From a virus: a stretch of 64,000 nucleotides of DNA. The translations under genes were made by a program, and so were the position numbers. Every line of letters starts with the position of its first letter. Position 1 is the stretch's first letter. The stretch is from positions 160,001-224,000 of the IMG/VR virus record IMGVR_UViG_3300045988_171958; one strand, given 5' to 3'. The notes beneath the pieces were generated by a model that made no database searches, was not told the origin of the DNA, and worked only from the letters and a program-made list of their open reading frames with translations. Positions 24 through 52,427 of the stretch are shown one piece after another.

Positions 24-608
24 ATGGAAAAAGAAATGAATGCAAAAACCCTGGATGATCTTGTAAAAGATATTTTAAGAGAATATCCAGGGTTTGTTGT
101 TCCAGCTAGAGGATTCTGGCCAGAAAATGTGCCAATGATAGAGTATTCAAGAGAAAAAGATGAATACTCATGGGATTGTGACAATAGAAATTGCAAAGGT
201 GAAGTATTTGGAATTCCTGATAATAGATTCAAAACAACAGATTCTACATTGGGTCATACTACTTTAGGTGATTTGAAGTCTATTATAGATGAAGCAATAG
301 AAAAATATGGTTCAGATACAGAAGTAAAGTTTGATGAACATGAATACAAAGCATACAACTGCAATACTAATTACAATGTTAATGTAAATATCATTAAGAA
401 GAAGTATGAAAATAATGATGAGTATTACAAGCGCATTACTAAAGCTCTTGATGAATATAAAGAGAAAGTTAGAAAAGAAAAGCAGTTGAAGAAAGATATT
501 GCTGAATTGAGTTTGATGCTGAATACTGATACTTTACGTACTGCTAATATTGAGAATTCTGATTTATATACATTAGAAAAAATTCTATCAAAATTGAGAG
601 ATGAGTAG
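24..608 (+). CDS. hypothetical protein (194 aa)
   Basis: Long ORF in the + strand gene array; K/E-rich C-terminal tail; no motif recognised. Confidence 0.55.
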   Translation: MEKEMNAKTLDDLVKDILREYPGFVVPARGFWPENVPMIEYSREKDEYSWDCDNRNCKGEVFGIPDNRFKTTDSTLGHTTLGDLKSIIDEAIEKYGSDTEVKFDEHEYKAYNCNTNYNVNVNIIKKKYENNDEYYKRITKALDEYKEKVRKEKQLKKDIAELSLMLNTDTLRTANIENSDLYTLEKILSKLRDE

Positions 609-7972: not shown

Positions 7973-7989
7973 ATAAAGAATTTGATATT

Positions 7990-8412: not shown

Positions 8413-8414
8413 CT

Positions 8415-11350: not shown

Positions 11351-11358
11351 CTATTATA

Positions 11359-11390
11359 ATTGAAATTCTTTTTATCAATTATCTATTTTT
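11359..11390 (+). promoter_or_regulatory. weak promoter-like match (ATTGAAATTC ... ATCTATTTTT)
   Basis: Degenerate copy of the cassette, spacing 24, pointing into the inverted-repeat region. Confidence 0.3.
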
Positions 11391-11437
11391 ATATAAGATA
11401 TTAGATATGAACATCATGTTTCTTCAAAATTAGTTCA

Positions 11438-11684
11438 CCAATATCACTCTCATTTGAGATGATTTGATAGTAAATATTATAGTAAAGAATTAAATAATAT
11501 TCAGTAAGAAATTAATGGTGTTTACAAAATATATCACAGCGGTGACTTAAAAGCGTCAGAGTACACGATAATTGATTTGTAGCTATTTCATTATATCACT
11601 CTGACGCTTTTTTTAAAAGAAATAATGAATTAGTCATGAACAACTTAGCACTTATCAAATCATCTCAAATGAGAGTGATATTGG
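11438..11684. repeat. 32-bp perfect inverted repeat flanking a 183-bp segment
   Basis: Left arm 11438-11469 CCAATATCACTCTCATTTGAGATGATTTGATA; right arm 11653-11684 is its exact reverse complement. Confidence 0.9.
11548..11617 (+). terminator. 14-bp stem / 35-nt loop hairpin followed by a T7 run
   Basis: AAAAGCGTCAGAGT (11549-11562) pairs with ACTCTGACGCTTTT (11598-11611), then TTTTTTT. Confidence 0.6.
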
Positions 11685-11757
11685 GTGTTAGTTTTTGATA
11701 TATTCATGATTTCTCTTGGTCACTTATATTCTATAAAATATATTTGAAAGAGAATTT

Positions 11758-13251
11758 ATGGCTACAGGATTATGCTACACTCAGAGTGGTAATGTTAAGA
11801 GATATGAAACGGATCAATGGCATGGATTTGCAACTACAGGTAAACCAGTATTAAGTGCATATGGGTTACCTGTAAATAATTTCAATATGGTCACCTGGAT
11901 ATTTAATTCAAATTACCATAAAAATGATCCTGTTGTTTTAAATGATACTTATTTTAATTATAGTATGAATAAAACATTATTTACAATTACTAAAGAACCA
12001 TCATCTACAAGTTATAAATATGAAGTAAGTTATACTAATTTTATTGATGATAATTATATTAATGATCTTAAACAACATATTATTGATAATTTTAATATCC
12101 AAACAAAACAAAATATAGATGATTATAATTTGACATATTATAATCCAAATATACTTAGTACTTATGAAACGAGTTATTCAATAATTCAATCCACATATAT
12201 ATTTAATTCTATAAAAGTATATTATCATAATATAGGTAATTATATTAATGTTAATAAATCTTCCTTATTCAGTGATAATTTTAATGGGTTTATAATTTAC
12301 AAACCAAAGCCTTTAAAATTATTTAATATATCTAGTGTATTATTTTCACCAGTGGTTTATATTAATGATGATACAAATGAAAAAATTTTTAACAAGGAGA
12401 TACAAATACAAAGTTTATGGACATTACCAATTCCTAAATTTGATGTGATTTTTACTACTGAATATAATAATGAAACTTATAAATACACACATAAAGATTA
12501 TAAATTTTCAAATAATCCTCCATTCCAAGATTTAAATATAAAAGTTAGTGATAATAAGAAATTAGGAAACAGTTTTATGGTAACATTACCTCCAATAGTC
12601 ATAAATGAAGATAATGGCAAAACAATAGAATATAATGGAACTAATCTACCAAATTTGAAAAATTTTACTTCTAATTTGGATTCAATAACACTATCAAATG
12701 GTAAAATTCTTTGGGCTCAAACTAATTATATGTATGAGTTAGTAGTAAAAGGATCTTTCCAAAAATCATACGAAATAATTAAATATGATACAAATTATGT
12801 TTTACATCAAATAAACCCAATAAGTTATGTTCAATTATTTATTAAAGATTTACCTGATTATTATTTAATAAATGTTAACTATGAAAGAAATATTAATGAC
12901 CCAATAAATGCTAGTAATGTAAGTATAATTTGGAATGTTAAATCTTATAAAAATGGTAAAATTTTACAATCATATATACCAGGAGGAATAATAGATGATT
13001 TAAATTTTTCAATTGAATTTGATTTCTCTGTGATTAATTATTCATATAGAGAAAATGAGATAATTAATGAATCTTCAACTGAAGAAGGTAAATTTTCAGC
13101 AGATATAAATGTATCATATCCTTTAAATAATTTATATGATTTTACAAGTGATTTAGATTATGAAGGTAATGGATATGATTATGTAGCAAGTATTGAACAA
13201 TTTACATACCCAAACAAGAGTCATTCTGGTATAGAAATTAAATGGAAATAA
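11758..13251 (+). CDS. Asn/Tyr/Ile-rich protein (497 aa), function unknown
   Basis: Long uninterrupted ORF in the most AT-rich part of the window; followed by a bidirectional palindrome. Confidence 0.6.
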   Translation: MATGLCYTQSGNVKRYETDQWHGFATTGKPVLSAYGLPVNNFNMVTWIFNSNYHKNDPVVLNDTYFNYSMNKTLFTITKEPSSTSYKYEVSYTNFIDDNYINDLKQHIIDNFNIQTKQNIDDYNLTYYNPNILSTYETSYSIIQSTYIFNSIKVYYHNIGNYINVNKSSLFSDNFNGFIIYKPKPLKLFNISSVLFSPVVYINDDTNEKIFNKEIQIQSLWTLPIPKFDVIFTTEYNNETYKYTHKDYKFSNNPPFQDLNIKVSDNKKLGNSFMVTLPPIVINEDNGKTIEYNGTNLPNLKNFTSNLDSITLSNGKILWAQTNYMYELVVKGSFQKSYEIIKYDTNYVLHQINPISYVQLFIKDLPDYYLINVNYERNINDPINASNVSIIWNVKSYKNGKILQSYIPGGIIDDLNFSIEFDFSVINYSYRENEIINESSTEEGKFSADINVSYPLNNLYDFTSDLDYEGNGYDYVASIEQFTYPNKSHSGIEIKWK

Positions 13252-22970: not shown

Positions 22971-23050
22971 CACACAGGGACGTTAAAATTGTCTTAGCTG
23001 ATAGAATATACTGAATCATAATTATCCGCTCCCTGTGTGACCCAGGCGCC
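22971..23050 (-). ncRNA. GC-box hairpin element, copy A (inverted orientation)
   Basis: Reverse complement of GCGCCTGGGTCACACAGGGAGCGG at 23026-23049; 10-bp stem 23031-23040 / 22971-22980. Confidence 0.6.
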
Positions 23051-24753: not shown

Positions 24754-24764
24754 ATAAAATATTG

Positions 24765-24796
24765 AATGGAACTCTTATATAAGAGTTCCATTTTTT
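24765..24796 (+). terminator. intrinsic terminator
   Basis: 12-bp stem AATGGAACTCTT-atat-AAGAGTTCCATT followed by TTTT. Confidence 0.75.
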
Positions 24797-24879
24797 GATT
24801 GTTAACATTGAACTTGACAAACTTAATTAACTATATTAGATAAAGTATAAGATAAAGTATAATAAACAAATTTAAAACT

Positions 24880-26439
24880 ATGATAATTGACAGATTTTGG
24901 TTAAGAAAGAATCAGACGTATTATATTTTCTATTTGGATGAAAATGGTAACAGAAAATGCTATTCAAAACAAATGCATCATTGGAAAACTTATGAGTACA
25001 ATCCAAATGGAAAGAAGTATACATGGGATGGTAAGAAATGTGATGTGGTATTCAAAGATGCATCTAAGTATCAACCGAATGAATTTGATCAGCTGGAATT
25101 CTTGTATAATTTGCCAGAAGATATCTATAAGGAAGTAATGGCAATGAGATTTCCACGAATCTACTTTTCTGATATAGAGACTGAAATTTCGGATGAATTT
25201 CCAGAACCAGAAAAGGCGGAACAAAGAATTCAGTTGATAAGTCTTGTTGGTCCAGATTTGTCAGTAATGGTATTAGGTATCAAACCATTGAATTCTGATG
25301 AACAAGAAGAATTGAAGGAAAGATACCTTAAATATATAGAAGATAATGATTTTGCAAAAAACCTAATAAAGAAAAAAGGTTTTACACCAAAAGTATATTA
25401 TCAATATTTTGAAACTGAGGAATCAATGATTGAACATTGGTTCACTAGAATAATGCCAAAGATTGGTTGTTTAGCTGGATGGAACTATTATAGATTTGAC
25501 TGGAATTATATTTGGAATAGAACAGTAAAGTTGTTTGGAAAGTTCAAAGCAATGCAATTGATGAGATCTGCCAGTGTTGTTGGAGAAATCAATAAGATTT
25601 CTTGGTCAGAGATGGATGGTACAAAATATAGTATTCCAGCACCACAAGGTTGCATGATATGGGATTATATGGAGCTCATCAAATCTTATGAATATTCAAT
25701 GAGACCTTATGAGTCATATTCATTGGATTGGGTTGGTAGTCATGGTGTTAATGCTCATAAAGTAAAATATGAAGGAACAATGAAGGAATGTTATGAAAAT
25801 GATTTCCCATTGTTTGTTTACTATAATGCTATCGACTCTTGTTTGAATGCTTTGATTCATTATCGTTTCAAATGTATTGAAAGTCCATGTTCTATGGCAA
25901 CAGTAACAGGAATTCCAGCTCAGAAAGCATTAGGTCAGGTGGCTTTGACCACAGCAAATCTGTTCAGATGTTTTTATGATGAAGATCGACATGTTGTATG
26001 GGATTATGATGCTGTTGAAAGAACAAAAGTAAATTATGAAGGTGCTTTTTGTGGATGTGTTCCTGGTCGTTGGGAATATAGTGTATGTGATGACTTTGCT
26101 TCACTTTATCCATCAGTGGTTCGAACTTGCAACATATCAATGGAATCCATTATTACAAATAAAGTAGGTCCAGATAGTCTTGGAAGATATACAGAAATTC
26201 CATGGACAGAAGAAGAGCTTGATAAATTCAGAAAAGACCCTAATTATTTCGTGTCATTGCAAGGAACTGTATACAGAAATGACAAAGAATTCATGTTCGC
26301 TAAAATGCAAAGAATTCAAAAGGAGCGTCGAGATCACTTCAAATATCTCAATTGGTCATTACAAGGCCCAGTAATGATGGAAGTTGATCGACTTATAAAG
26401 ATAAGAGAAAAGGAAAGTAAATGTCAAAAGAATGGATAG
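24880..26439 (+). CDS. family B DNA polymerase, N-terminal part only (exonuclease domain through motif A; 519 aa)
   Basis: Exo I FSDIETE, Exo II GWNYYRFDWNY, Exo III YYNAIDSCL, Pol motif A DDFASLYPS. No KxxxNSxYG or YGDTDS motif before the stop. Confidence 0.85.
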   Translation: MIIDRFWLRKNQTYYIFYLDENGNRKCYSKQMHHWKTYEYNPNGKKYTWDGKKCDVVFKDASKYQPNEFDQLEFLYNLPEDIYKEVMAMRFPRIYFSDIETEISDEFPEPEKAEQRIQLISLVGPDLSVMVLGIKPLNSDEQEELKERYLKYIEDNDFAKNLIKKKGFTPKVYYQYFETEESMIEHWFTRIMPKIGCLAGWNYYRFDWNYIWNRTVKLFGKFKAMQLMRSASVVGEINKISWSEMDGTKYSIPAPQGCMIWDYMELIKSYEYSMRPYESYSLDWVGSHGVNAHKVKYEGTMKECYENDFPLFVYYNAIDSCLNALIHYRFKCIESPCSMATVTGIPAQKALGQVALTTANLFRCFYDEDRHVVWDYDAVERTKVNYEGAFCGCVPGRWEYSVCDDFASLYPSVVRTCNISMESIITNKVGPDSLGRYTEIPWTEEELDKFRKDPNYFVSLQGTVYRNDKEFMFAKMQRIQKERRDHFKYLNWSLQGPVMMEVDRLIKIREKESKCQKNG

Positions 26440-27458
26440 ATAATATATTGCTAAAGTTATTAGGTGATCACAATGGCCATCTAATAACTTCTTATTCTCA
26501 TAAATTTAAAATTGGAAAATATCCTAGGATATCTGAATATTTAAAAAATAGATTTGAAGAATTCATAACATATAGTGAAACTTATGCAAGAATTAAATTA
26601 AAAGTAGAAACTCACCCAGTATGCAAATATTGTGGAAAACCAACAAAATATGGTGGGTGGAAGCTTTTAAAGAAAACTGGTTTATTATATGGGAAATTTT
26701 GCTCTGCAAAATGTGCAAACATATATAATATTGATAAAGTAAAAGAAACGTGTAAGAAAAAATATGGAACCATTTCTGTTTCTCAAACCAAATGGTTTAG
26801 AAAACAAGTTGAGGAAACATCTTTAAAGAAATACGGTGCTAAATGTATTTTATCAAATACAGAAATAAGAGAAAAAATAAAAAATACTTGTAAAAGAAAA
26901 TATGGTGTTGAATATATTTCTCAATCTAAAATTATAATAGATAAAGTTAAAAATTCTTTACTATCTAAATATGGGGTTAAATGTGGTTATAATAAACCAG
27001 ATGTGATGGAAAGAATGAAATCTAAAGAATCACAATTAAAAAGAACTGAAGCTTTAAAAAGAAATAAAAGTTATGTAAAGTCGATTCCAGAAGAAAAATT
27101 AAATGATTTATTAGTAGAAAAATATGGTAAAGATGACATTGAAAGACAATTCATATCTAAAGAATATCCTTGGCATTGTGACTTCTACATTAAATCTTTA
27201 GATACATTTATAGAATTGCAAGGTATGTGGACACATGGTGGACATCCATACAACTTAAATTCAATAAAGGATCAAGTAAAATTACAACGGTGGCAATCAA
27301 AAGCCGACAATGGTTCAAGATTTTACAAGGGTGCAATAAAAGTTTGGACACAATTTGATGTGAATAAAAGAGAAACCGCTATCAAAAACAATTTGAAGTA
27401 TATAGAAGTGTTCGATAGTAGGAATTTTGAAATTCTTTACAATTTGTCTATATTATAG
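26421..27458 (+). mobile_element. free-standing homing-endonuclease-like gene, family copy 1 (345 aa)
   Basis: Zn ribbon CKYCGK..CSAKC; four tandem ~23-aa xxKKYGxxxxSQ repeats; C-terminal YPWHCDFYI...FIELQGMWTHGGH (Vsr/EDxHD-like core). Overlaps the polB fragment by 19 nt. Confidence 0.7.
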
Positions 27459-27484
27459 ATGTTCAAATCATAAATTCTTAGAAT

Positions 27485-27829
27485 ATGAAAAGAGTAAGTA
27501 GAAATTTACAATCAGTTATCAAGTCGGATGTAAAACCAGTATTTGGTGGTACTATGTATACAGTAAACTATATTCTCAATGAGAAAGATAATACAGTACA
27601 TAGAAACATCTTATGTCTTGTAGAAGTATTGCCTGCTAAGAAAGATGATAAGCCTATTGCAAGTTGTACACCACACAATATGAAATTCTTCAAAATAAAA
27701 GAGAATGGAGAACCAGAACAGCTCTATCTTTGGAGTTGGGAATTCATGACAGATGAATTTAAGAAGAATTACAATTATGTGAACAATACAATAAATAGAT
27801 TATATAAGAAAGGAAAGATAAATGTTTAA
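27485..27829 (+). CDS. hypothetical protein (114 aa)
   Basis: ORF; no polymerase motifs. Confidence 0.5.
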   Translation: MKRVSRNLQSVIKSDVKPVFGGTMYTVNYILNEKDNTVHRNILCLVEVLPAKKDDKPIASCTPHNMKFFKIKENGEPEQLYLWSWEFMTDEFKKNYNYVNNTINRLYKKGKINV

Positions 27830-28115
27830 GGTAACAGAAATGGATCATTTTCACGATTGGTTGAAGAATGAACTTGATGCAATGATAGACCAAAATGTTT
27901 CTATTAAAGTTCCTGAATTAATACCATCTCCAAGAGGATTTGGTGCTAGTATAGAACGAGTAGAACATATTGGTAAAGTATTGAATTCAAGAGTAACATT
28001 AGTAGCACCTAAGAATGTCAAATATCCAGTATATAAATGTGAATTGAGAATTCACAATAAAGATGGTAAGAAAGAATGGCTTACTTTGAATGATGCTTAT
28101 CTTAAGGTATTGTAA
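27822..28115 (+). CDS. hypothetical protein (97 aa)
   Basis: ORF. Confidence 0.5.
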   Translation: MFKVTEMDHFHDWLKNELDAMIDQNVSIKVPELIPSPRGFGASIERVEHIGKVLNSRVTLVAPKNVKYPVYKCELRIHNKDGKKEWLTLNDAYLKVL

Positions 28116-28120: not shown

Positions 28121-30004
28121 ATGGCAAAGACAATAGAACAAAAATATAAAGAATTATCAGAACAACAGCATGTGATCCTTCGCCCAAATATGTATGTAGG
28201 GTCTATTAAACCAGAACTTTCTACTCAGTTTGTTTTTGATTATAAAGAACAGATGATGGTACAGAAAGAAGTAGAATATGTTCCGGGTATTTTAAAGCTT
28301 ATTGATGAGGTTATATCAAATTCATGTGATGAATATCGTAGACCTGATAATCTTGGCCTTACTAATGTTTCTGTTACTGTAATGAAAGATAATACTATAG
28401 TAATAGAAGATAATGGTGGAATTCCTGTTGTTAAGCATAAAGATGCTGGCGTGATGCTTCCAAGATTTATTTTTGGTAGACTTCGTACTTCTTCTAATTA
28501 TAATGATGATGAAGATAGAGCAGGCCTTGGACAAAATGGAATTGGAGCTAGTTTGACAGCTATTTTTTCATCATATTTTGGTGTAATGACTGATGATGGA
28601 AAGAAGCGATGGCTCGGTAACTGGAAAAACAATATGTCTGAATTCTACGATGAGGAAATAGAAAAATCTTCTAAGAAGAATCATGGAACTAGGATTACAT
28701 TTCATCTTGACTTTTCTAGATTTGAAGGTATAGATAAGTTTGACAGAACATTCAAGGATATCATATTGACACGTTGTATCAATGCTGCAGCTGCTAATCC
28801 TGGATTGAAGGTAACATATAAAGATGTTGATGTATGTGGTGAATATAAGTTTGACAATTTCAAAGACTATATTGACTTATATAGAAACTATGTTACTTTG
28901 AAGGATTGTATAGAGATGAAAGATGAACATAAGCATGTCTATGTATATCCTGATGGAGCTATCAATATTGGATTTGTCAATGGAGGTATTTGCAATAAAG
29001 GTACTCATGTTAAAGCATTGCACCAAATCATCAATACTACTGTATGTGATTTTCTTAAGAAGAAAGATAAGATTGATTTGCTTCCACGACAAGTTGATGG
29101 CAACTATAGTATGTTTTGCGACTTGACTATTTCTAATCCATCTTATGATTCTCAGACTAAGGAATGCTTGACCACCCCTGTAGAGAAATTCTATAAAGAT
29201 GAAAATGTTAAGTTTGAGCTTCCAAACAAATTTCTTGATTCTGTTGTAAAGTCTGAAATCATAGATAATGTAAGAGATTGGTATAAGAAGAAATGTGAAG
29301 CAGAAGACCAACGTACTCTTCGTAAACTCAATAAAGAAGCAAGCAAAGGTCTTCGTCGTTCTGATAAGTATGTGACTTGTTCATCAAAAAAGAAACAAGG
29401 TAAGCAGCTTTGGATTTATGAAGGTGATTCTGCCGCAAGAGGTCTTCGTATTGGTAGAGATCCAGAAACCCAAGCTGGTTATGTAATGAGAGGTGTACCA
29501 CCTAACTCATTGGATATGTCGCCATTGCAGATTATGAAGAATGATGTGTTCAATGATATCATTACTATTTTAGGTCTTAAGTTTGGTGATGACTTCAATA
29601 TCAATGATTTGAAATTCGATAAGATTGTAATATCTACTGATGCAGATATTGATGGAGATAAGATTGCAGCATTGTTGCTTCTCCTTTTTTCTAGATGGCC
29701 AATTCTTTTTGAGAAGGGTATAGTATGCAGAAGCATTACTCCTATCATTATTGCAAAGAAAGGTAAAGAAGTAAAGAAGTATTATAGTCAAGAAGAATTT
29801 GATAAAGATGCAAGAAAGCTTAAAGGATATATGATTAAATACGTCAAAGGTCTTTCCGGTCTTGATGCATCTGAAACAAAGGAATCAATGAGAAACCCTA
29901 TCTTCATGCATTTCAAGATTGATGATTTGACAAAGTCAATGTTCAAGAAATGGTTTGGTAAGAATAGTAATGATCGAAAAGAAATGATGGGAGATTTAGT
30001 ATGA
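28121..30004 (+). CDS. type II DNA topoisomerase large subunit (GyrB/ParE-like; T4 gp39(+gp60)-like, 627 aa)
   Basis: GHKL motifs EVISNSCDE, EDNGGIP, GQNGIGAS; Toprim EGDSAA and STDADIDGDKI. Confidence 0.9.
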   Translation: MAKTIEQKYKELSEQQHVILRPNMYVGSIKPELSTQFVFDYKEQMMVQKEVEYVPGILKLIDEVISNSCDEYRRPDNLGLTNVSVTVMKDNTIVIEDNGGIPVVKHKDAGVMLPRFIFGRLRTSSNYNDDEDRAGLGQNGIGASLTAIFSSYFGVMTDDGKKRWLGNWKNNMSEFYDEEIEKSSKKNHGTRITFHLDFSRFEGIDKFDRTFKDIILTRCINAAAANPGLKVTYKDVDVCGEYKFDNFKDYIDLYRNYVTLKDCIEMKDEHKHVYVYPDGAINIGFVNGGICNKGTHVKALHQIINTTVCDFLKKKDKIDLLPRQVDGNYSMFCDLTISNPSYDSQTKECLTTPVEKFYKDENVKFELPNKFLDSVVKSEIIDNVRDWYKKKCEAEDQRTLRKLNKEASKGLRRSDKYVTCSSKKKQGKQLWIYEGDSAARGLRIGRDPETQAGYVMRGVPPNSLDMSPLQIMKNDVFNDIITILGLKFGDDFNINDLKFDKIVISTDADIDGDKIAALLLLLFSRWPILFEKGIVCRSITPIIIAKKGKEVKKYYSQEEFDKDARKLKGYMIKYVKGLSGLDASETKESMRNPIFMHFKIDDLTKSMFKKWFGKNSNDRKEMMGDLV

Positions 30005-31038
30005 CAGATATTGAAATAATAAATGCATATAAAGATAAAACTAAAATTTATTTTGTAGGTATGAAAGAAGAAATTAAATCATATCTACAAAATAGATTTA
30101 ATGATAGTGATTCTATAAAAGAAAGTTTTTATAGAGTTATGAATAAAATATATGATAGACCAACATGTAAATATTGTAATGGACATGTTAAATTTGTTTG
30201 GAAAGAAAAAAGATTTTTAAAATATTGTTGTTTATCATGTAAAATGAAAGTTGAATCTCCATTTAAAAGAAAAGAAATACAAAATAAAATAAAAGAAAGA
30301 AATATTGAAAAATATGGAGTAGACAATGTTTTCAAATTAAAAGAATTCCATGATAAATCTAAACAAACAAAATTAGATAGATATGGGGATGAAAATTATA
30401 ATAATAAGGAAAAATTTAAAGAAACATGTTTAAAGAAATATGGTGTAAATGCTCCATCACAAAATAAAGAAATAAGAAGAAAACAAATTGAAACTTCAAT
30501 AAAAAGATATGGGGGTGTATTCCATAAAGAAGAAGTTTCTAAAACAATTAAAAGAAAATACGGGGTTGATTGGTTTGTATATTCAGATAAATTAAAAGAA
30601 AAGGCAAATAGTGATGAAGCCCATTATAAAGCATATATTACTAAGAAGAAAAATAAATCTTTTGGACCTCAATCAAAAATGGAAAATATTTGTTATTTAT
30701 ATCTTAGTTTATATTATCCAGATATAATAAGACAATATAGAGATAATAAAAGATATCCATATAATTGTGATTTTTATATACCATGTTTAGATATGTTTGT
30801 TGAATTTCAAGGATATTATACACATGGTACACATCCTTATAATAAAAATTCTATTAAAGATCAAGTAATATTAGAAAGATTTAAGTCAAAATATAAAGAT
30901 TGGAAGAAACTTCCACAAATTATATCAACATGGACAATTAAAGATGTAGAAAAAAGAAATTTTGCTAAACAAAATAATTTGAATTATAAGGAATTTTTTA
31001 CTATTGATGAATTAAAAGATTGGTTAGAAAATGGATAA
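30001..31038 (+). mobile_element. homing-endonuclease-like gene, family copy 2 (345 aa)
   Basis: Same architecture: CKYCNG..CLSC, about five (K/R)YG repeats, YPYNCDFYIP..FVEFQGYYTHGTH. Start overlaps the upstream stop (ATGA) and its stop overlaps the next start. Confidence 0.7.
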
Positions 31039-32437
31039 GAAAAATAAAGATAAAGTAATAATTAAAAAAAATATAGATAAAAATGTTACAGAGTTTCTTA
31101 ATGTTGATTATCTAAATTACAGTTTATATACCATATCTTCAAGGGCTATTCCTTCTATATGTGATGGGTTTAAACCAGGAGCAAGAAAGATTGTACATGC
31201 AATGTTTGAAGGATCATTAAAAAATGGTGCAACAACAAAATTACTTGCACTTGTTGGAGATACAATGAAAATATCTCTTTTTGCCCATGGAGATCAAAGT
31301 CTTATTGGTAGTATATGTACATTGGCTAAAGCTTTTTATAACTTTTATAACCCACTAGAAATCGAAGGCCAAGGAGGATATCTTCGTAGTCCAGAAGCTG
31401 GAGCACCTCGATATCTATATATAAGAAAGTCAAAGTATGCAGACTTAGTATACAAGACAGATTATGATTTGCTGAAGTATGTATTTGAAGAAGGTGATTA
31501 TGTTGAACCAGAACATTACCTTCCTATTGTGCCAACAGTTCTTTCTAATACAACTATGGGTATTGCTAATGGATATTCTTTCCATAGCAATGCTTGGAAT
31601 CCAGTAGATGTGCTTGATTGTTGTTTAGAGATTCTCAAAAGTAAGAAAGGTGTAGAAAAGTTTAAGACAGTTGTAAGACCTTATTTGAGGGATATCCCAC
31701 AAGACAATTGGAAGTTAGAATCTGGTCAGTGGTATTGCTATGGTGAATGGAAGACAAATCAAGCAAAAGATCTGATGACAATCACTAATTTGCCATCTGA
31801 TACTACTTATGTTGAATTTGAAAAATTGCTGAATAGACTTTGTGACAAACAAGAAATCAAAGACTATAAAGACTTGTCAGAAGATGGCAATGTACATTAT
31901 GAAGTACAATTCTTCAAAGGTCAACTTGCAAAAGAAATCAAATCAGATAGGTCAGGTAAGAGATTAGCTAATAAGTTCAAGCTCATTAAGAAACTTCCAG
32001 AAGATTTGCTTTGGTTGCTTGATGAGAATGGTAAGCTCAAATATTTCAAAGACAGATATGAAGTTATCAGATATTTTGTAAATTGGAGATTGTCTGTTTA
32101 TGTTGAGAGAAAGAAGAAGCTTGTAAAGATACTTGAAGAGAAATACAAGAACAATTCGGAATTGGTAAAGTTCATTGAACTTGTATGTAAAGGTAAGCTT
32201 AAGATTCGTAACAGAAGTAAGGTTGATATCAAACCAGATATGGATGCACAACACTTACCAATGGCATTGTTAGCAACACCTATGTCAAAAGTAACTATAG
32301 AAGAAAGAGATGAACTTTTGAAGCAGAATGAGGAAATTAAAAAGCAACTTGAATACATTAAGAATACAACAGAAAAGCAGATGTATATAAATGACTTGCA
32401 GTCATTGAAGCAATCCTTGTTAAAGGATTTTAAATGA
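31031..32437 (+). CDS. type II DNA topoisomerase cleavage subunit (GyrA/ParC-like; T4 gp52-like, 468 aa)
   Basis: SSRAIPSICDGFKPGARKIVHA (GyrA N-terminal signature) and GAPRYLY (catalytic Tyr context). Confidence 0.8.
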   Translation: MDKKNKDKVIIKKNIDKNVTEFLNVDYLNYSLYTISSRAIPSICDGFKPGARKIVHAMFEGSLKNGATTKLLALVGDTMKISLFAHGDQSLIGSICTLAKAFYNFYNPLEIEGQGGYLRSPEAGAPRYLYIRKSKYADLVYKTDYDLLKYVFEEGDYVEPEHYLPIVPTVLSNTTMGIANGYSFHSNAWNPVDVLDCCLEILKSKKGVEKFKTVVRPYLRDIPQDNWKLESGQWYCYGEWKTNQAKDLMTITNLPSDTTYVEFEKLLNRLCDKQEIKDYKDLSEDGNVHYEVQFFKGQLAKEIKSDRSGKRLANKFKLIKKLPEDLLWLLDENGKLKYFKDRYEVIRYFVNWRLSVYVERKKKLVKILEEKYKNNSELVKFIELVCKGKLKIRNRSKVDIKPDMDAQHLPMALLATPMSKVTIEERDELLKQNEEIKKQLEYIKNTTEKQMYINDLQSLKQSLLKDFK

Positions 32438-32513: not shown

Positions 32514-32592
32514 GCGCCTGGGTCACACAGGGAGCGGAAAAATACTTAGAAGTATAAATTATAACCTAAGAAAAATTTCCACTCCCTGTGTG
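32514..32592 (+). ncRNA. GC-box hairpin element, copy B
   Basis: GCGCCTGGGTCACACAGGGAGCGG at 32514-32537; 11-bp perfect stem CACACAGGGAG (32524-32534) / CTCCCTGTGTG (32582-32592); inner GGAAA/TTTCC and CTTAG/CTAAG pairs. Confidence 0.65.
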
Positions 32593-36568: not shown

Positions 36569-38422
36569 ATGCCATATATTCTCAAACATACAAAATGGTT
36601 TTCTAACCGCCCTACTTATACTATCAATAAGTTTGGCATAAATCCATCTTCAAAGTTCATATATAAAGAAATGGAAATTGAAGCTTATAAGACTTCACCG
36701 GCATTGATGTCACAAGCTTTACTTTATGTTTCCAACCAAGTAACAGAAAATTCTGCACAGTTAGTTGCTAAGAAAAATTCTGATTCTTCTTATACAGATG
36801 GCAAACATATTGTTGTTGGTATGAATCCAATGAAGGAACATAAAGATGCTTATGATGGTATGGATATTGAAATGGGATTAGCTTGTCATGAAGCATGCCA
36901 TTGTGCTTTTACTGATTTCAAAAATTATGATTTGAAAATGGTAAAATATCCTATTGCTCATTGGCTTCATAATGTATATGAGGATGAATGCATTGAAGAA
37001 ATGTTAGGTATCAAAAAACCACAATGGATGTATTTTTTGAACCATGTATTGTCACATTACTTTTCTGAAGATAAATTCATCAATTCTATAAAGAAACTTG
37101 TTCTTTCTAACAGTAAGATAGATATTGTACAGTTTATGATATTGTATATGATTAGAAATTCAGAACTTTCAAATAGATTTCCTAAAGAATGGATTGATGA
37201 ATTTGGTCCAATGTTAGATGAGATATATGAAAAGGTTATTGTAAAAATTGAAGATCCAAATCAATTCAAATATACTCCTACAAAAAATACTGTTGTTGCA
37301 TGTCTTGATACTATAGAAATAATCAAGAAATATGTAAAGTTAGATGATCTCAATTCAAGATTATCTAAGCCAAATCTTGGTATGATAGGAAATTCTTCAA
37401 CTGAAGGTAATCCAAATCAGGATAAGAATTGTGGTCAAAATGGATTGTTTTCTCCTAATACAAGTGAAGGAAGAAATAAATCAAAGAATGCAATATCACA
37501 AAAATTCAACAATGCAAAAAATTCAGTAAATCAAGAAAATGATGCTCTTGGTAAATGTGATACTAATAAACCAGATAAATTATTTAATGGAGCAAAAGAA
37601 GAAATAGGAGCAGTAAAACCAAATAGTTCTGATGCCATTGCTTATAAGAAGATGATTTCTAAGTTATCAGAAGAAATAAAGATTGCTAAGAAAATAATCA
37701 TTCCTAACAATAAGAAAATTGAATTAGAAGATGATAAATTTCATAGAAATGGACAACTTATATCATCTCATCTTGTACAGGCGATTCAAGGAGTAAACTG
37801 TGTATATCATAGAAAGGTTATAAAGAAATCAGAAAGTCCAGATCCTAAATATGCATTTGTAATATCAATAGATGAATCTGGATCAATGAATTTTCCTCAA
37901 AATGGTGAATATTCTGCTAGAAATGTCGCATCAAAACTTGCTTGTATTTTTTATGAAGCAATGAAAAATTATGAGGGAATTGATTTGTATATTTATGGAC
38001 ATGGTGAAAATATTGTAAAATACATTACACCTAAAGATAAGAATCCTTATAAGTTAGGAAATCGATTATATCAGATGTCTCAAAATGATGCTAAGTCTTA
38101 TGATACTATATTGAAAGATGTAAAATTGCAGACAAATAAGAAAATACTCTTTTTGAATATTACTGATAGTTTATATTTGAGTAGTAAAACATCATTAATT
38201 AGAGTTATTGATAATTGGAAGGCACAAAATGTATTATTTGGACTACTTTGTATCAATTCATCAGATTATGAGTATCAAAATAATGAAAAGGAATATAAAG
38301 CAATCAATAACCAGTTATATGGGGATAATTGGGTAGGTGTATCTGATACAAAATCAGGAATGAAAGAAGCATTGATTAAATTTTCTAATATTATTAGAAA
38401 AAATTATGATAAGCTTAAATAA
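36569..38422 (+). CDS. von Willebrand A domain protein (CobT-like partner of the MoxR/CobS ATPase, 617 aa)
   Basis: MIDAS-like FVISIDESGSM near the C-terminal third; His/Cys-rich HEACHCAF metal-site-like segment. Confidence 0.65.
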   Translation: MPYILKHTKWFSNRPTYTINKFGINPSSKFIYKEMEIEAYKTSPALMSQALLYVSNQVTENSAQLVAKKNSDSSYTDGKHIVVGMNPMKEHKDAYDGMDIEMGLACHEACHCAFTDFKNYDLKMVKYPIAHWLHNVYEDECIEEMLGIKKPQWMYFLNHVLSHYFSEDKFINSIKKLVLSNSKIDIVQFMILYMIRNSELSNRFPKEWIDEFGPMLDEIYEKVIVKIEDPNQFKYTPTKNTVVACLDTIEIIKKYVKLDDLNSRLSKPNLGMIGNSSTEGNPNQDKNCGQNGLFSPNTSEGRNKSKNAISQKFNNAKNSVNQENDALGKCDTNKPDKLFNGAKEEIGAVKPNSSDAIAYKKMISKLSEEIKIAKKIIIPNNKKIELEDDKFHRNGQLISSHLVQAIQGVNCVYHRKVIKKSESPDPKYAFVISIDESGSMNFPQNGEYSARNVASKLACIFYEAMKNYEGIDLYIYGHGENIVKYITPKDKNPYKLGNRLYQMSQNDAKSYDTILKDVKLQTNKKILFLNITDSLYLSSKTSLIRVIDNWKAQNVLFGLLCINSSDYEYQNNEKEYKAINNQLYGDNWVGVSDTKSGMKEALIKFSNIIRKNYDKLK

Positions 38423-38441
38423 ACCAAGAGTCCCCTGTTAA

Positions 38442-38515
38442 GCGCCTGGGTCACACAGGAAACGGAAAATGGTCGAGATGATAAATTATATCTCTCGACC
38501 ATTTTTATTGTTTCA
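38442..38515 (+). ncRNA. GC-box element copy C fused to an intrinsic terminator
   Basis: GCGCCTGGGTCACACAGGAAACGG at 38442-38465, then 13-bp stem AAAATGGTCGAGA / TCTCGACCATTTT (38466-38505) and a T-rich tail. Confidence 0.65.
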
Positions 38516-38527
38516 GGATTGATTTTC

Positions 38528-39211
38528 CTAGTTGCTAGCTTCACCAGTGCTCATGTCCTCGTCCCAGAAGTCACTTCTAAATGTAACTGCTAATTTTGCA
38601 GGTTCATTATCAGTATAGTTCAATGTATCAAGACCAGTAACACTTGTAATCATTGTGTCATGGAATACATAGGCTCTGTAAATTGTACCATCTCTATTAG
38701 CTTCCGCAATTCTCATTACATCAGCAACATAGTCAGCCTTCAATGTACGAGTACCATCAGCAAGGTCATAACCAAGTTTTTCCCAAGCCTTGAAGATACG
38801 GAGCAACCAAGCATCTGACTTAGAACGGATGTTCAAATTAAAGTTCACTGTAACTTCAGCATAAGTGTTATCCAATGTTGGGTTTAAGAAGCTCACATCA
38901 ACACCGAAGAATTTCTGTGAACCAGCTTGTACTGTCTTCTGCAATGCATCCAAACCAGCAACATCAGTAACTTGTTCTGTCATAGTAGCGGCATCAGCAC
39001 CAAACATACCTTGCAACTGTGTAGGAAGTGTGAATGATACTTCAAACACAGCACGGTTCATTGGATCATGACGATTAGCACCAGCCTTAGTATTCATCAA
39101 ATGAGGAAGATGTGTCTTGCCATCATGGCCACGAGAAGCAAAATCACCTGTAGTTGCAGGAACTGATCCACCCCAATAAATGTTAGGCTTATTTTCTGTT
39201 ATTTTCTGCAT
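38528..39211 (-). CDS. tail tube protein (T4 gp19-like, 227 aa)
   Basis: Lies directly downstream of the sheath gene. NRAVFEVSFTLP and C-terminal KLAVTFRSDFWDE parallel T4 gp19 NLFQVEISYLG / TFEVTLALDYWE. Confidence 0.7.
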   Translation of the reverse strand: MQKITENKPNIYWGGSVPATTGDFASRGHDGKTHLPHLMNTKAGANRHDPMNRAVFEVSFTLPTQLQGMFGADAATMTEQVTDVAGLDALQKTVQAGSQKFFGVDVSFLNPTLDNTYAEVTVNFNLNIRSKSDAWLLRIFKAWEKLGYDLADGTRTLKADYVADVMRIAEANRDGTIYRAYVFHDTMITSVTGLDTLNYTDNEPAKLAVTFRSDFWDEDMSTGEASN

Positions 39212-39252
39212 AAAACTTTCTTATATATAAGATTTGTTATTTTCCTTAGAAT

Positions 39253-39276
39253 GAGGAAGTCCTTAAGGACTTCCTC
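39253..39276 (-). terminator. 10-bp stem-loop GAGGAAGTCC-ttaa-GGACTTCCTC between sheath and tube genes
   Basis: Perfect stem, no strong T run; could be an attenuator or RNA-stability element. Confidence 0.45.
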
Positions 39277-39284
39277 AATGTATT

Positions 39285-42200
39285 TTATTCTCCAAGAATA
39301 GTAGAATTCATCTGACCTGTACGATACAGAGTCAACTCATGTACCATCTTACCCATACCACGACCTGGTTCAATATGAGTAGACAAGATAGCCATCTCAT
39401 TATCAATAATATCAGGTGTGTTGTTAGAGTCATCCATGACATTCAAGTAAGCTTGAATACCACCATTAGCTTGAACTCTAGCACAGATAGAATCAGCACG
39501 ATCCTTAATCTTATTACGTACGGTTTGGTTGTTGAACTCCCATTGATAAGACTGAAGAATCTTCTCAACTTCATCCATGATGTAGATAACCAACTCACGA
39601 ACGTTAACAGAACTCAATGCTGACTTAGGTGTCTGCTTAGCAGTTTGGTTAGCATTGATGAATGTACCGAAGCTTGGGCGGTATACCATACAATTTACAC
39701 CAAAAGGTTCAATTATGTTGAGTTCATCACCACTATAATTGTAATCAGGACCAACAAGACCAGATACTGACATTGCACCATAGTTAGGACCAGCTACAAT
39801 TTCATAAGGAAGACGAGAATTGTACTTCTCCATGAACAAGTTAGATACAAGACCTGCAGATGGAACAACAGAATCAATAGTACCATCAGAAAGCTTCAAT
39901 GGAGTATAGAAAGCTGCAAAGCTAGCACCTTCATCATTTGATGGAAGAGAGAATGCTGTTGTATGAGCTTTCTTCTTATTGAATCCATCAACTACATATT
40001 GTACATTGAATACTCCCTTAGCATCAGTAAATGAACTGTATGGACACTTTACAAATGTCTTAACAGAAGGGAAGTTCAGAATAGCGAATGCATTTTGCTT
40101 CTGCTTAGCGAGATAAGAAAGTACCTTCTTAGCACCTGCATCAACATAAGTTTCGAAACCATCGATAACATATCTGAAGTCAATTTCTGACTTATTCAAA
40201 AGACCTGTACGAAGACCTTTGTATTCAGTCAAAGCTGATAACTGGAAGTTCTGCCATTCAAGCTTAGCACGTTGACCAACTCCATCTGGCTTTGGATGTT
40301 CGTAAGTATAACCCTTCAAGTATACAGGTTCCATAGTACCAATTTCTTGGTTCAAACCATTTTCAATACGAACAAGATACTTACCATAAGTTGTTGCATT
40401 TTGTGCGGCTTTCTTGATCCACTCATTAGTATTAGCTACCAATGTAGAATAACCAACTAAGTAATGACCAGTCTTTTTTGTACCATTTTCAGTATATTCT
40501 GCTGTAGTACTGTTATAAGCTGTCTTTTCAGAAGTAGAAAGCTTACCGTAATCTTCTACAGAAATTGGCTTAATCTTTTGATATTCAGCATTAGTATACA
40601 TAACTACTTCCTGACCAAAGTCAAATGTTGGATTAGTATACATTGCAACATAATATCCGATTTTATCAGTACCATCATGTTTCAAAGTAATGGTATTTGC
40701 AGTGATTTTGTTAGTATTATCTACCTTCAAATCAGGATTAGCAAAACCATCTACATAGAAAGTACCGTCATTTGTTAGAACTTCAATAGGTTTCTTAAGA
40801 CCATCTGCAGTAGCATTCAATTGTTTGATATCATCATAAATGAATGTATAAGAATCAAGTTCTACATATTTATAGTCTGCTTTTACATCACCAGTTTTAG
40901 TAGAATCAGGAAGAGCTTTATATGCTGCACCTGTTATATTGTCTTTACTTGGATCTGTTGTTGCAATCTTATGATAATGATAGTTCTTAGTACACATGTT
41001 ACGTGCATTAGCACTCAACAACATGTATTCTACACCGGTAACTTGCTTAGAAAATACGATAGCAGAAGATTTGAATCCATCTTTATTCTTTGCTACTTCA
41101 TAAGCTTCAGCAGTCAAAGTTCTAGGTCCTACATGGTTGTAAGAAACTGCCCAATTCTTAGGATTGTAGAGCTTCTGTTCTTCTGTATCAAGCAACTTGT
41201 ATTCACCATTAGAAATAGTTACGTCCTTGTCAGATTTGCTAGCACCTTCATAAGTAGCGATATTACCAGTGAACTTAATAGAGTATGTTTTAGGATTACC
41301 ATATTCATCAGTGATAGTTTCTGCTTCTTGAACATAACAAAGGTCATAATAACCGTTAATAACTTCATCAGAATAGTCACCATCACCATCCATATCAATC
41401 TTACCATCTACTGCTAAGAACTGATCACCCTTCTGAAGCATAGCAAGAATAGTAGTATCAGCTGTAGCAGGAGCAGTCAAATGATATGTATGTACAGCAT
41501 CTTCATCTTCTTCATCATATACATCAGCTGACAATGTCCAGTGTTCATTCAATGGAATGAATGTTACAGATGGGCCATATACATTCCAAGAAGCATACTT
41601 GTTAGTTGTATCAATCAATGTATCTGGGTTCAAATATTCTGTCTTTGTAGTAATGTAAACATCTTCGATGTTACACTTAACAACTTCAGAACTCAAGATT
41701 ACCATAGCGTCATTTGTACTATCCAAATCTCTAGAAAGAGAAGTAATCACTCTCTTAGGACCATCAACATTCTCAGGTTTATTATAAGCGTCCGTCGATG
41801 TGTAAACTGTACCAAGACCTGACTCAAATGAAACATAAGTAGTTTCACCATCAACTGTCTTCTTGTAAGCAGCACCAAGTTCATAAAGAACATAGTTTAC
41901 GTTTGGCTTATCAACCATACTTAAATCAATAGTGATACGTTGAGTTGAACCAACAGCACCAAGAATAATGCCTTTATCGGTCCAAGACTGAACATACATA
42001 TTACCACTGATCTTCTTGGTTTTCTTATAAGAAAGAGGATGCTTGATAGTATCTTCATCTGACCAGATGTTTGTACGGAAATGTGTCTTAGCAGAAACAA
42101 CTGGAGCACCAACATTACCAAGAAGTGATGTTAAAGCAGTACCCTTCCAAAGTCTGTCGATACAAACAATGCTAGTACCATACTGCTTGTAAATCTTAGC

Positions 42201-43256: not shown

Positions 43257-43330
43257 GTAAATTATTTATGTTTTTATAAAAATAATGTATAAGTACTATT
43301 TTTAATTATAAATCTATATAATGCTTATAA

Positions 43331-49624: not shown

Positions 49625-51334
49625 TTAAAAGACTTGTTCATATTCGGATGCATGTACTATTACTTGACCCGTACATAAACTTTTCTTAATGTTTTCTTTA
49701 TTGATTTTCTTATTCTTTACACTTACTCTTATCTTATGGTCAAATCTGTCATCAGGCATAGGACCATGATTGATAATTATGATAGTTCTGTTGTTTGCCA
49801 TAGAAGTTTGAAGCATTTCCAACATCATATCTTTCATATTGTCATCCATATTTGAAAAGAGTTCATCAAGTCCTATTATATTAAAATTAACATTTGCAAT
49901 AACATTCTGAAGAATTCCAAATATAATACAAATATCTAAGGTCTTCTTCTGACCAGTTGATAAGTCTTTATATGAAATTTCTTTTTCATTATTATCAATG
50001 AATATGTGGCACTTGAATTCCTGGTCAAACTTGACAGAATAGTTTTGTTCAAGCTTATTGAGATACTTAGATATTGAATTGTTGATATGAGGTATCATAG
50101 AATCAAGCAACTTGTATCGTAATGACTTAGTGAACAATTCTGACAAATCATTCCATTCACCTTGTTCTAATTCATTATCTAATGATTCTTGTTGTAATCT
50201 CTCTAACTTGTCTTTAGCTTCTGATATCAAATTATCAAAATTATCTTTCATTAACTTAAGATTAGAATTGTAAGTTGATACTTTAGTATCAATAGAATGG
50301 ATTTCAGATTTGATATCAGAAATCAATGTATCATATTTCTTGTTTACTATATCTATCTTATCATTTATAGATAGAATTTCTTTAGATACTTCTTCTATCT
50401 TATCATTCCAATCATGCCAAACTTTAGCATAATCATTCATTTTATTGAGATATTCATCTATTTTTGATTTCTCAATATCATGACCACATGTAGGACATTT
50501 ACCTGATTTGAATTTCTCATACATCTGTTTCTGTTGCTTTCCTAAAGTAGCTGCTTCTGTACGCTTATCAACAAATTCAGATTTCTTTTTCTCTAATTCT
50601 CTTTTTTGCTCTACTATTGTATCAACTTTTTGCTTATGTTCTTCTTTTACAGATTTTCCTTGTTCAATCAAGTCATTTCTTCGCTTGTCCAATCCTGTTA
50701 TATCTATTGATGTAGCAAGTTTCTGTTGCTGATTTTCTTTCTTCTTTTTTAAAGATTCTATCTGATTAGAAGTTTCTTGTATCAATGCTTGCAATTCTGT
50801 TCCTCTTTTTGCAACATCTCTTCTTTCTTCAACTACTTCATCATTATAAGTAGTAAAAGTCTTAAAACCAAATACATCATCCAAAAAGCATTTTGTTTGA
50901 AATGGGTTCATGCTTGCTAATGACATAAACTGGTTGAACGATATGATGCACATTCTTTCTATTGCAATTCTTGGTACATCATAATATTCTTCTAGGATTT
51001 TCTGATAATCATTCTTAGATGGTGCTTGCAAATCCTTTCCGTCTATTTTTGCTACCATTTCAGAATAACAAGATCTAGAAATATAAATATCATGCTTTCC
51101 AGAAGTAAGCCATAATTCAACTTTATAGTCTTTAGTATTCCAAGCAATCAAATTTGGGTTCTTATGATCTTTTATGGTACCATAAAGACCAAATAGAATA
51201 GAATTTAATAGCATGGTTTTTCCACTTCCAATAGGACCAGAAAGCTTAATCATTCCCTTTAATTCATTAAAATTAAATTCATGAACCCCATATAAAGATC
51301 CAAAATTTTTTATTCTTATTTTATTTATTATCAT
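49625..51334 (-). CDS. Rad50/SbcC-like recombination ATPase (T4 gp46-like, 569 aa)
   Basis: Walker A GPIGSGKT, central coiled coil with CPTCGH zinc hook, signature LSTGQKK, Walker B IIGLDELF. Confidence 0.85.
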   Translation of the reverse strand: MIINKIRIKNFGSLYGVHEFNFNELKGMIKLSGPIGSGKTMLLNSILFGLYGTIKDHKNPNLIAWNTKDYKVELWLTSGKHDIYISRSCYSEMVAKIDGKDLQAPSKNDYQKILEEYYDVPRIAIERMCIISFNQFMSLASMNPFQTKCFLDDVFGFKTFTTYNDEVVEERRDVAKRGTELQALIQETSNQIESLKKKKENQQQKLATSIDITGLDKRRNDLIEQGKSVKEEHKQKVDTIVEQKRELEKKKSEFVDKRTEAATLGKQQKQMYEKFKSGKCPTCGHDIEKSKIDEYLNKMNDYAKVWHDWNDKIEEVSKEILSINDKIDIVNKKYDTLISDIKSEIHSIDTKVSTYNSNLKLMKDNFDNLISEAKDKLERLQQESLDNELEQGEWNDLSELFTKSLRYKLLDSMIPHINNSISKYLNKLEQNYSVKFDQEFKCHIFIDNNEKEISYKDLSTGQKKTLDICIIFGILQNVIANVNFNIIGLDELFSNMDDNMKDMMLEMLQTSMANNRTIIIINHGPMPDDRFDHKIRVSVKNKKINKENIKKSLCTGQVIVHASEYEQVF

Positions 51335-52427
51335 GATTAATAAAATGTTTTACTTCATCTAAATTAAAAAATTCAATGTAATTCAAATGATTTATTTTTG
51401 CAACTTTTCTTTTATATGGATCTCTTTCTGTCCATATTTGTATTGCATTCTTATATAGAATTTTATTTTCATTTTCATATTTATATTTCCATTTATTAAC
51501 AATGTTACTATCTTCTTCCGATTCAGGATTATAAATATGGTCGCCATGTGTCCAATATCCATTGAATTCAATAAACAAATCTTCACTAGGAATATAAAAG
51601 TCACAATTAAATGGATATCGATTACTATTATATTGTCTTATTACATCCTTATATTTTAATTTTAATAATTCAAAACATTTATCTTCTTTTTTAGATCTTT
51701 TATAAGATCCATTTTTTATTTTAGTTTGAATTATTTTATTTTGTACTTCCGGATCAGATAATTTAATTCTTAAATTTTCTCTTGCTTTAGGACATTGATT
51801 ATAATATTCATATCCGTATTTAATTAAATTGGTTTGTTTAGTTTTTTCTTTACATTTTTCAGATGATAAAGATATTTGGGCTTTTTTCCTTATATCTTCA
51901 TCACAAAAGAAATTTGCATAGCCATATTTTCTAAGTCTTGTTTCTTCTGATTTCTTTTGAATTTCTTTGGAAGAAAGAACACATTTTACTCCATATTTTT
52001 TTAAACAAGTATTTTCTTTTTTATTTTTGATTTCTTTTAATTGGAATGGATTTTCTGTACCATATTTATTCTGCCAAGTCATTTTCATCTTGGTAATTAT
52101 ACCTGGTATACCTTTACCATATTTTTTTAACCTTGTTTCTGCAATATGAATACCAACTAAATTAGATTTTTTCTTACAATCATTAGAACAATATGTCAAA
52201 TATACTAATCCAGGATGTCCATTAAATTTACAATTTTTACCACATACTGGGCACTTTGGAATTTCTTCTATATTATATTTTATTCTATATACAGTTTCTT
52301 TATAAGAGTTAAATTCTTTAAATCTATTCTTTAAATATTTTTTAACTTCATCTGTAAAAGATTTCTTATTTAATTTTAATCTTTTTTTAAAAAATTCATT
52401 AATTATATATTCATCATTGATTTCCAT
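51321..52427 (-). mobile_element. homing-endonuclease-like gene, family copy 4 (368 aa)
   Basis: CPVCGKN..CSNDC, KYG repeats, YPFNCDFYIP..FIEFNGYWTHGDH; overlaps the gp46-like start by 14 nt. Confidence 0.7.

Follow-up and report, generated by a model that had tools for sequence, protein, structure and literature searches.

The polymerase locus

The window considered here is a stretch of 64,000 nucleotides of IMG/VR virus record IMGVR_UViG_3300045988_171958 (positions 160,001 to 224,000), which corresponds to 220,653-284,652 of the NCBI contig CACVDK010000001.1 (293,853 bp, assembly GCA_902729945.1), window position 1 being 220,653. It carries polN, a gene for the N-terminal half of a family B DNA polymerase, and the gene for the C-terminal half, polC, appears to lie outside it. 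The source is a jumbo phage of the human gut with a genome of about 294 kb, belonging to the T4-like lineage, and it is considered very probable that its replicative family B polymerase is made from two unlinked genes, about 35 kb apart and in reversed order, with an endonuclease-like gene at the end of polN as an optional later invader. The features at the locus are the following.

24764..24793 (+): terminator-like hairpin with a 13-bp stem and a T-run, putatively closing the upstream transcription unit
24808..24837 (+): TTGAAC-N16-ACTATATT, a promoter-like sequence motif of presumed function, some 45 nt before the ATG of polN
24880..26439 (+): polN, gene for the N-terminal subunit of a split family B DNA polymerase, 519 amino acids, stop codon TAG
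26092..26118 (+): motif A, DDFASLYPS, with the catalytic Asp of the palm, aligning to DLTSLYPS of RB69
26421..27458 (+): optional free-standing homing-endonuclease-like gene of the DUF7487 family, 345 amino acids, overlapping the last 19 nt of polN
27426..27455 (+): promoter-like motif of the phage, TTTGAAATTC-N-TCTATATTA, which would serve the following gene; it lies within the 3' end of the endonuclease open reading frame (ORF) and marks where the insertion stops on the right
27485..28115 (+): a pair of short, conserved ORFs (114 and 97 amino acids) without polymerase motifs, directly after polN in endonuclease-free relatives
28121-30004 and 31031-32437: topoisomerase II subunit genes, downstream of the small ORFs

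The product of polN has an N-terminal domain and a 3'-5' exonuclease; of the palm it contains the first part, including motif A, and of the fingers the first helix. It is matched by Pfam DNA_pol_B_exo1 (E 1.1e-13), the match to DNA_pol_B being short and confined to motif A, and its residues 93-490 align with 109-489 of RB69 gp43, with motif A and Exo I-III intact and the exonuclease motifs at the expected positions (Exo I FSDIETE, Exo II GWNYYRFD, Exo III YNAID). Residue 490 of polN corresponds to RB69 489 and is followed by 29 further residues. The fingers domain of RB69 gp43 spans residues 469-572, and on this alignment the end of polN is close to the fingertip. The genetic code of the phage is the standard one (stop codons TAA 44, TAG 9 and TGA 4), and readthrough of the polN TAG would add only four codons. 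The promoter-like element upstream of polN is the single match to this pattern in the window, with 0 expected by chance.

No C-terminal half was found near polN. Regular expressions for motifs B and C found nothing in the six frames of the window; such expressions miss the variants of relatives, for example NGSYG and KKMY, and the result relied on is that of a profile hidden Markov model (HMM) built from 19 stand-alone C-terminal halves, which gave nothing at E<0.5 in the window and 10 kb on each side. Searches of the window by tblastn, with polC of MA9V-1 (the C-terminal half of the closest phage) and with the genes neighbouring it, gave no match, and polC is absent from the 34.9 kb upstream and the 46.6 kb downstream of polN in the source record. 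The 617-amino acid ORF at 36569-38422, which stands at the place of polC in some relatives, was tried and rejected, as it is not polymerase-like. The two small ORFs that follow polN gave no family matches. An earlier note on this DNA, made from the letters alone, is borne out on all of these points: it had read the ORF as the part of a family B polymerase with Exo I-III and motif A that ends before motifs B and C, had seen an endonuclease-like ORF overlap its last 19 nt, and had noted that the next ORFs lack polymerase motifs, that topoisomerase genes follow, and that neither motif B nor motif C is to be seen in any listed frame of the window.

The partner half

The partner was found in close relatives. 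The promoter motif TTTGAAATTT-N10-TTCTATATTT, together with a relaxed form of it, served as a probe for collecting pieces of related contigs, and revealed two loci, L322 (IMGVR_UViG_3300045988_172530) and L391 (IMGVR_UViG_3300045988_172955), in which the HMM search detects polC with E~1e-73; L322 was also matched in a scan of IMG/VR with a degenerate DNA pattern for motif C followed by KKKY. Both contigs carry polN as well as polC, with polN at 97-98% identity. The polC product has 430 amino acids and comprises the second fingers helix with motif B (KLLNNAAYGA), the palm with motif C (YSDTDS) and the thumb, and also has KKKY, motifs B and C being read in relatives at 96-98% identity. It matches Pfam DNA_pol_B and aligns to RB69 gp43 555-840, residue 56 corresponding to RB69 555. 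An AlphaFold2 model of it (predicted local distance difference test score 84.4) has chains of RB69 gp43 as its best PDB matches, with E 5e-14 and a template modelling score, relative to the query, of 0.55-0.65.

The same gene was sought in the protein database, by phmmer with MA9V-1 polC and with the 19-sequence profile. The polC of this phage is not among the matches listed, nor among those listed in the exhaustive representative search; the cut-offs of the two lists were 430 and 290 bits, and it scores only 247 bits against the profile. P0028 and P0082, two candidates from long contigs, were rejected as belonging to other phages, neither amino acid composition nor the length before motif B discriminated between polC candidates, and the loci gathered by way of the endonuclease family were mostly those of other phages.

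The ratio of non-synonymous to synonymous substitution rates (dN/dS) is 0.08-0.20 for polN against close relatives and 0.07 for polC among them, and the amino acid identities to a more distant relative, 72% and 71% for the two halves, represent a matched divergence. Such values indicate that both are under strong purifying selection and have retained their function. In endonuclease-free relatives a TTGAAC-N16-WCTATATT variant is found about 35 nt upstream of the polC start (L322 729-759, and likewise L391), the TTGAAC-N16-ACTATATT of polN being the same variant, and where an endonuclease gene is present at polC it sits between the promoter-like element and polC. Each of the two genes has a promoter-like element of its own.

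The position of polC relative to the window is predicted from the gene order of relatives.

about -11,664 to -10,372 in window coordinates, record about 208,988-210,280 (+): polC, the partner gene, outside the window

The order runs [124 aa]-(optional DUF7487)-polC-229 aa-83-193-263-91-(optional SegE-like)-RtcB-...-127 aa (lengths in amino acids, aa), and the series from polC to the 127-aa gene ends at the first ORF of the window, 24..608, in more than 10 independent assemblies from ENA, Logan and JGI. The genes of the source record from 210,676 onward are the same series, starting inside the 229/238-aa gene, and positions 2498-4209 of L322 equal the record locus L005 15-1719 with 97.8% identity. 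From this synteny and the identity of the adjoining DNA, polC would be on the strand of polN, some 10.4-11.7 kb upstream of where the window starts. The distance from the polC stop to the polN start is then about 35.3 kb, and as polC comes first the gene order is inverted relative to the protein order. A distant second part was one of the three alternatives of the earlier note, and the placement of polC about 35 kb upstream of polN agrees with it.

Endonuclease-like genes at the break

The 345-aa ORF that overlaps the end of polN matches Pfam DUF7487 and two PHROG 'homing endonuclease' families (E 1.8e-15, 1.7e-8), and no solved relative of the DUF7487 endonuclease-like protein was found. Its C-terminal motif CDFYIP...FIELQG.WTHG.H falls on the catalytic motif of Vsr, although the match is weak, with an hhalign E of 0.12 for E. 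coli Vsr (approximate query sequence) and of 0.014, likewise weak, for the 'VSR endonuclease' of PTm1.

Nine loci could be compared at the 3' end of polN. The DUF7487 gene is present in three (the source phage twice, and L012, where the allele has 298 aa and is 50% identical to that of the window) and missing from six (L010, L011, L013-L016). In those six polN is 513-517 aa long with a native tail ...IREEE(E)NSKS*, and downstream of it come a terminator-like hairpin, the promoter motif of the phage and then the same 114-aa and 97-aa ORFs. Alignment of the DNA reveals that the insertion swapped out the last six or so codons of polN together with the hairpin and extends to the next promoter, and that the endonuclease ORF supplies the last six or so codons of polN. 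As six of the nine loci are without the gene and their polN is still of this length, the DUF7487 gene is, on these comparisons, a later and optional invader of a polymerase gene that was already split.

A second site lies just upstream of polC, where a DUF7487 gene is found in L447 and L450-L456 and is missing from L322 and L391; it occurs there in at least two unrelated alleles (371/355 aa and 413 aa), which are 32% identical. Judging from these loci it is a second hot spot, and both ends of the break attract the family. Three more genes of the family occur in the window, with 36-40% identity to the copy at the end of polN.

30001..31038 (+): DUF7487 endonuclease-like paralogue that separates the genes for the two topoisomerase II subunits and is missing from L013 and L016
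43331..44488 (+): DUF7487 endonuclease-like paralogue adjoining the major capsid gene
51321..52427 (-): DUF7487 endonuclease-like paralogue between Mre11-like and Rad50-like genes

Presence and absence of a DUF7487 gene among close relatives is thus polymorphic at three sites, the 3' end of polN, the 5' side of polC and between the topoisomerase genes. Endonucleases of another kind also occur nearby: L451 (14004-15305) and L453 (8627-9919) have an ORF of 430-433 aa with a faint match to the GIY-YIG protein SegE, inserted just before RtcB, so that endonuclease genes vary at a further site as well, some 3-4 kb downstream of polC.

Could the endonuclease gene at 26421-27458 itself have broken the polymerase gene of this lineage in two? 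Its ORF does overlap the stop codon of polN, and an origin of split gp43 by homing-endonuclease insertion has already been proposed (PMC2988022). A DUF7487-type ORF also lies between polN and the next polymerase piece in PTm1, and in LR756500.1 (462 kb; L363, 245,000-267,000) the polymerase is found in three ORFs of 476, 261 and 317 aa spread across 14 kb, the breaks being overlapped by two DUF7487-type ORFs (656 and 575 aa), the one at the end of polN and the other between the middle and C-terminal pieces, this second break being at motif C, the intein site of PTm1. However, relatives without the endonuclease carry the same split, which refutes the idea for the present copy. The alleles are only 50% identical at the polN site and only 32% at the polC site, which indicates repeated invasions, and the split is common to MA9V-1, PAU, PTm1 and the LR7565xx records, whose polN is only about 30% identical, so that it must be much older than the present endonuclease copy. 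A splitting by this gene is therefore very improbable, although an ancestral endonuclease may have caused the original break. The invasion of an already split polymerase gene was also weighed by Edgell and colleagues for Aeromonas phage 25 (PMC2988022). The split is ancestral to a broad clade of jumbo phages. A speculative and rather unlikely extension is that repeated cutting and repair by DUF7487 enzymes at the fingertip-coding ends of polN and polC is what unlinked the halves. If so, there would be a whole clade of gut and environmental huge phages with a polymerase in two or three pieces, the genes of which drift freely around the genome (35 kb apart here, 100-280 kb and on opposite strands in the LR7565xx records). 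Unlinked halves could then also be expressed or partnered independently, polN for instance acting as a proofreading module by itself.

Two genes, probably one enzyme

It is proposed that the products of polN and polC form one polymerase. The break lies at the tip of the fingers, where several T4-related phages also split, and the two proteins, extrapolated to the ends of their ORFs, together roughly span the full RB69 chain. They most likely associate non-covalently, which is suggested by two precedents: the 43A and 43B proteins of Aeromonas phage 25 purify together and have polymerase activity (PMC2988022), and Pfu polymerase with an engineered split at the fingers tip is fully active (PMC3061061).

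There are points that weigh against this picture of one enzyme from two unlinked genes. The assembly of polN and polC into an active enzyme is taken over from other systems, the promoter-like elements are sequence motifs only, and the presence of polC in the stretch 208,988-210,675 of the record is deduced from synteny and from adjoining DNA that is 97.8% identical. For the 72% relative, polC is reported at 845-2113 and polN at 125,427 on 148,148-bp contigs, the pair being L449 (JGI 3300001525 chfec4_10000058, 1-12,113) and L016 (IMGVR_UViG_3300001525_000092, 115,427-136,965) from the same metagenome. Should the two be a single contig read in one orientation, the halves would be about 124 kb apart and not the 35 kb or so that collinearity with the source phage leads one to expect; the L016 loci around polN are collinear with the window, and either a large block has been inserted between the halves or the coordinate systems differ.

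A covalent joining of the halves, whether through protein trans-splicing with a split intein, as in Nanoarchaeum PolB, or through RNA trans-splicing, would also yield one polymerase. Split inteins are known to join distant halves, for example in Nanoarchaeum (PMC2677866), relatives of this phage use inteins inside polC, several homologues of 550-620 aa carry Pfam Intein_splicing, and ORF-239 of PTm1 is an 'intein-containing split DNA polymerase precursor'. Against this, neither polN nor polC has an intein domain in Pfam scans, and Rfam gave no group I or group II intron signal near the polN 3' end or around polC. The end of polN equals that of MA9V-1 polN, with no extra stretch of about 100 aa, and the N-terminus of polC is also without extra length; polN aligns up to about RB69 489 and polC from RB69 555 onward, and when extrapolated to their ORF ends they roughly make up the whole chain. 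Covalent joining is thus very unlikely.

Equally poor are the prospects of a truncated polymerase, with polN as a decaying remnant or a lone exonuclease and another polymerase replicating the genome. The exonuclease domain of polN is indeed complete, and a second, minimal split enzyme resembling Pol III alpha has been reported in jumbo phages of this group (PMC7824862). However, polN retains motif A and the first fingers helix at a low dN/dS (0.08-0.20), and the contigs that carry it also carry a matching polC, with motifs B and C intact and an equal rate of divergence.

The truncation of polN is not an assembly artefact, because the ORF ends in the same way in all the contigs compared: the identical 519-aa product is encoded by CACVDK010000001.1 and, independently, by the Logan assembly of a human gut metagenome (run ERR866585), and polN with the same ORF end is on seven IMG/VR contigs (six at 97-98% identity, one at 72%). 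An assembly or frameshift error hiding a contiguous polB can accordingly be set aside as next to impossible, given that some of these contigs are without the endonuclease, that no frame downstream of polN resembles polC, and that a separate, intact polC exists elsewhere with a start and a promoter-like element of its own.

The remaining suggestions of the earlier note have fared less well than its description of the locus. That the polymerase ends at a homing-endonuclease insertion, as its title implies, is contradicted by the six endonuclease-free loci, and a truncated enzyme and an unusual mechanism of joining went without support from the selection data and from the intein and intron searches respectively.

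The reading of two unlinked genes whose products meet in one polymerase would mean that a phage replicase split at the fingers tip tolerates the full genomic unlinking of its genes without an intein. Phages are routinely classified, placed in phylogenies and checked for completeness by their family B polymerase, and where half of the gene has its partner tens to hundreds of kb away, the enzyme will count as truncated, missing or duplicated if the arrangement goes unrecognised. The arrangement also provides natural examples in which to study the assembly of split polymerases and the reshaping of essential genes by homing endonucleases in the jumbo phages of the gut.

Other features of the window

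The promoter-like motif that served as a probe, TTTGAAATTT-N10-TTCTATATTT, has at least 12 copies in the window and lies upstream of many genes on the + strand.

3957, 16638, 53561, 54639, 59392: exact matches to TTTGAAATTT-N10-TTCTATATTT
5971, 20820, 21230, 27426, 32661, 36503, 58238 and, on the - strand, 53541: examples of its roughly seven variants

In IMG/VR 28 of the 33 matching stretches are on contigs of this phage group, and the motif serves as a nearly specific sequence tag for the group. Its TTTG...TA..TTT layout presumably resembles the promoters of Bacteroidota.

An intergenic repeat of about 85 nt has a G+C-rich invariant core, GCGCCTGGGTCACACAGG(G/A)A(G/A)CGGA, of which there are four copies in the window with 0 expected by chance.

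23033-23049 (-), 32514-32530 (+), 38442-38458 (+), 61190-61206 (+): cores of the intergenic repeat, with about 40 nt on either side

Each copy is found just after the end of a gene and has a variable hairpin after the core, and in two or three copies CTCCCTGTGTG follows, which is able to pair with CACACAGGGAG. The repeat has no Rfam match; a structured RNA, a terminator module and a small mobile element are all conceivable.

A tandem repeat of 36/72 nt at 46918-47217, with about seven copies and 81-84% matches, lies within the ORF 46474-48051 (-), which has a prohead-protease domain, and would give that protein a repetitive segment of 12/24 aa. Two long ORFs, 36569-38422 (+, 617 aa) and 11758-13251 (+, 497 aa), have no Pfam match, and the former has no PHROG match either; it is conserved in the 72% relative (L016) and is situated a few genes downstream of the topoisomerase genes. 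The G+C content is 0.34-0.43 over 38000-48000, against about 0.30 elsewhere, this being the region of structural genes on the minus strand (a 1323-aa ORF, major capsid and prohead protease), and the GC skew switches sign with the coding strand.

Comparison with known split polymerases

The closest sequenced relatives of polN are those of MA9V-1, PAU and PTm1/PTm5, at 27-32% identity, and they have the same split point, with stand-alone polN of 487-497 aa and polC of 404-425 aa. MA9V-1, a phage of Chryseobacterium, has 31.6% identity to polN and encodes polN (495 aa) and polC (425 aa) 2.2 kb apart, in PAU (Sphingomonas) the halves are gp105 and gp110, and PTm1 (Tenacibaculum) is also split. Unlike the arrangement here, polC follows polN within 2.2-2.5 kb in MA9V-1 and PAU or within 2.0 kb in PTm1, and a conserved gene of 270-290 aa just before polC in these phages was not detected in the window or beside polC here. 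Stand-alone C-terminal halves of 380-430 aa are abundant in metagenomes, the polC cluster counts 1153 member sequences in public assemblies, and the polymerase genes of the gut Jug phages are often interrupted by endonucleases.

Distant halves are met with in uncultured and unannotated GenBank records, each of the three below having a single polN locus and a single polC locus.

LR745206: polN at 232.8 kb (+), polC at 130.6 kb (-), about 101 kb apart
LR756502: polN at 253.9 kb (+), polC at 120.5 kb (-), about 132 kb apart
LR756504: polN at 256.0 kb (+), polC at 538.0 kb (-), about 281 kb apart

Their polN is about 30% identical to that of the window, and the distances and orientations differ from those here. 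The stand-alone polN ORFs that were checked are of 515 aa in LR745206, 499 aa in LR756504 and 476 aa in LR756500. A search of the literature found no paper describing unlinked polymerase halves in phages.

Amongst the T4-related phages a split gp43, as 43A and 43B, is known from Aeromonas phages 25, 31, 44RR and 65 and Acinetobacter phage 133 (Petrov et al. 2006, 2010, as cited in PMC3061061 and PMC2988022), and the halves are 2 bp-3 kb apart (PMC3061061), near each other as the earlier note had it. The present polymerase is like these in being a family B enzyme of the RB69/T4 type that is broken at the fingers tip into two independent ORFs with no intein, and in sometimes having a free-standing homing endonuclease at the junction, which may have entered a gene that was already split (PMC2988022). 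It is unlike them in that 43A and 43B are adjacent and in protein order, whereas here the halves are about 35 kb apart and reversed, with dozens of unrelated genes between them, and in that the endonuclease is of the DUF7487 family and not GIY-YIG.

The split PolB of Methanothermobacter thermautotrophicus, with genes 85 kb apart (Kelman et al. 1999, as cited in PMC3061061), is similar in consisting of two distant genes without an intein, and the archaeal enzyme reconstitutes activity (PMC3061061). It differs in being archaeal, in having its palm split about 83 residues C-terminal to the fingertip position (PMC3061061), and in having no associated endonuclease.

Dassa et al. (2009) described phage replication genes fractured into two ORFs with a free-standing Vsr-like endonuclease at the break (PMC2677866), and a phage replication gene in two ORFs with a free-standing endonuclease at the break is again what is seen here, although, unlike in those fractured genes, no split intein flanks the break between polN and polC. 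Their model predicts that the parts of such genes later become uncoupled in the genome, a step that they documented only for cellular DnaE and for Nanoarchaeum PolB (PMC2677866). Fingertip splits and distant PolB halves are thus each known from elsewhere, and what the present phage adds, alongside the unannotated GenBank records, is a phage polymerase split at the fingertip whose genes would be unlinked, here without an intein.

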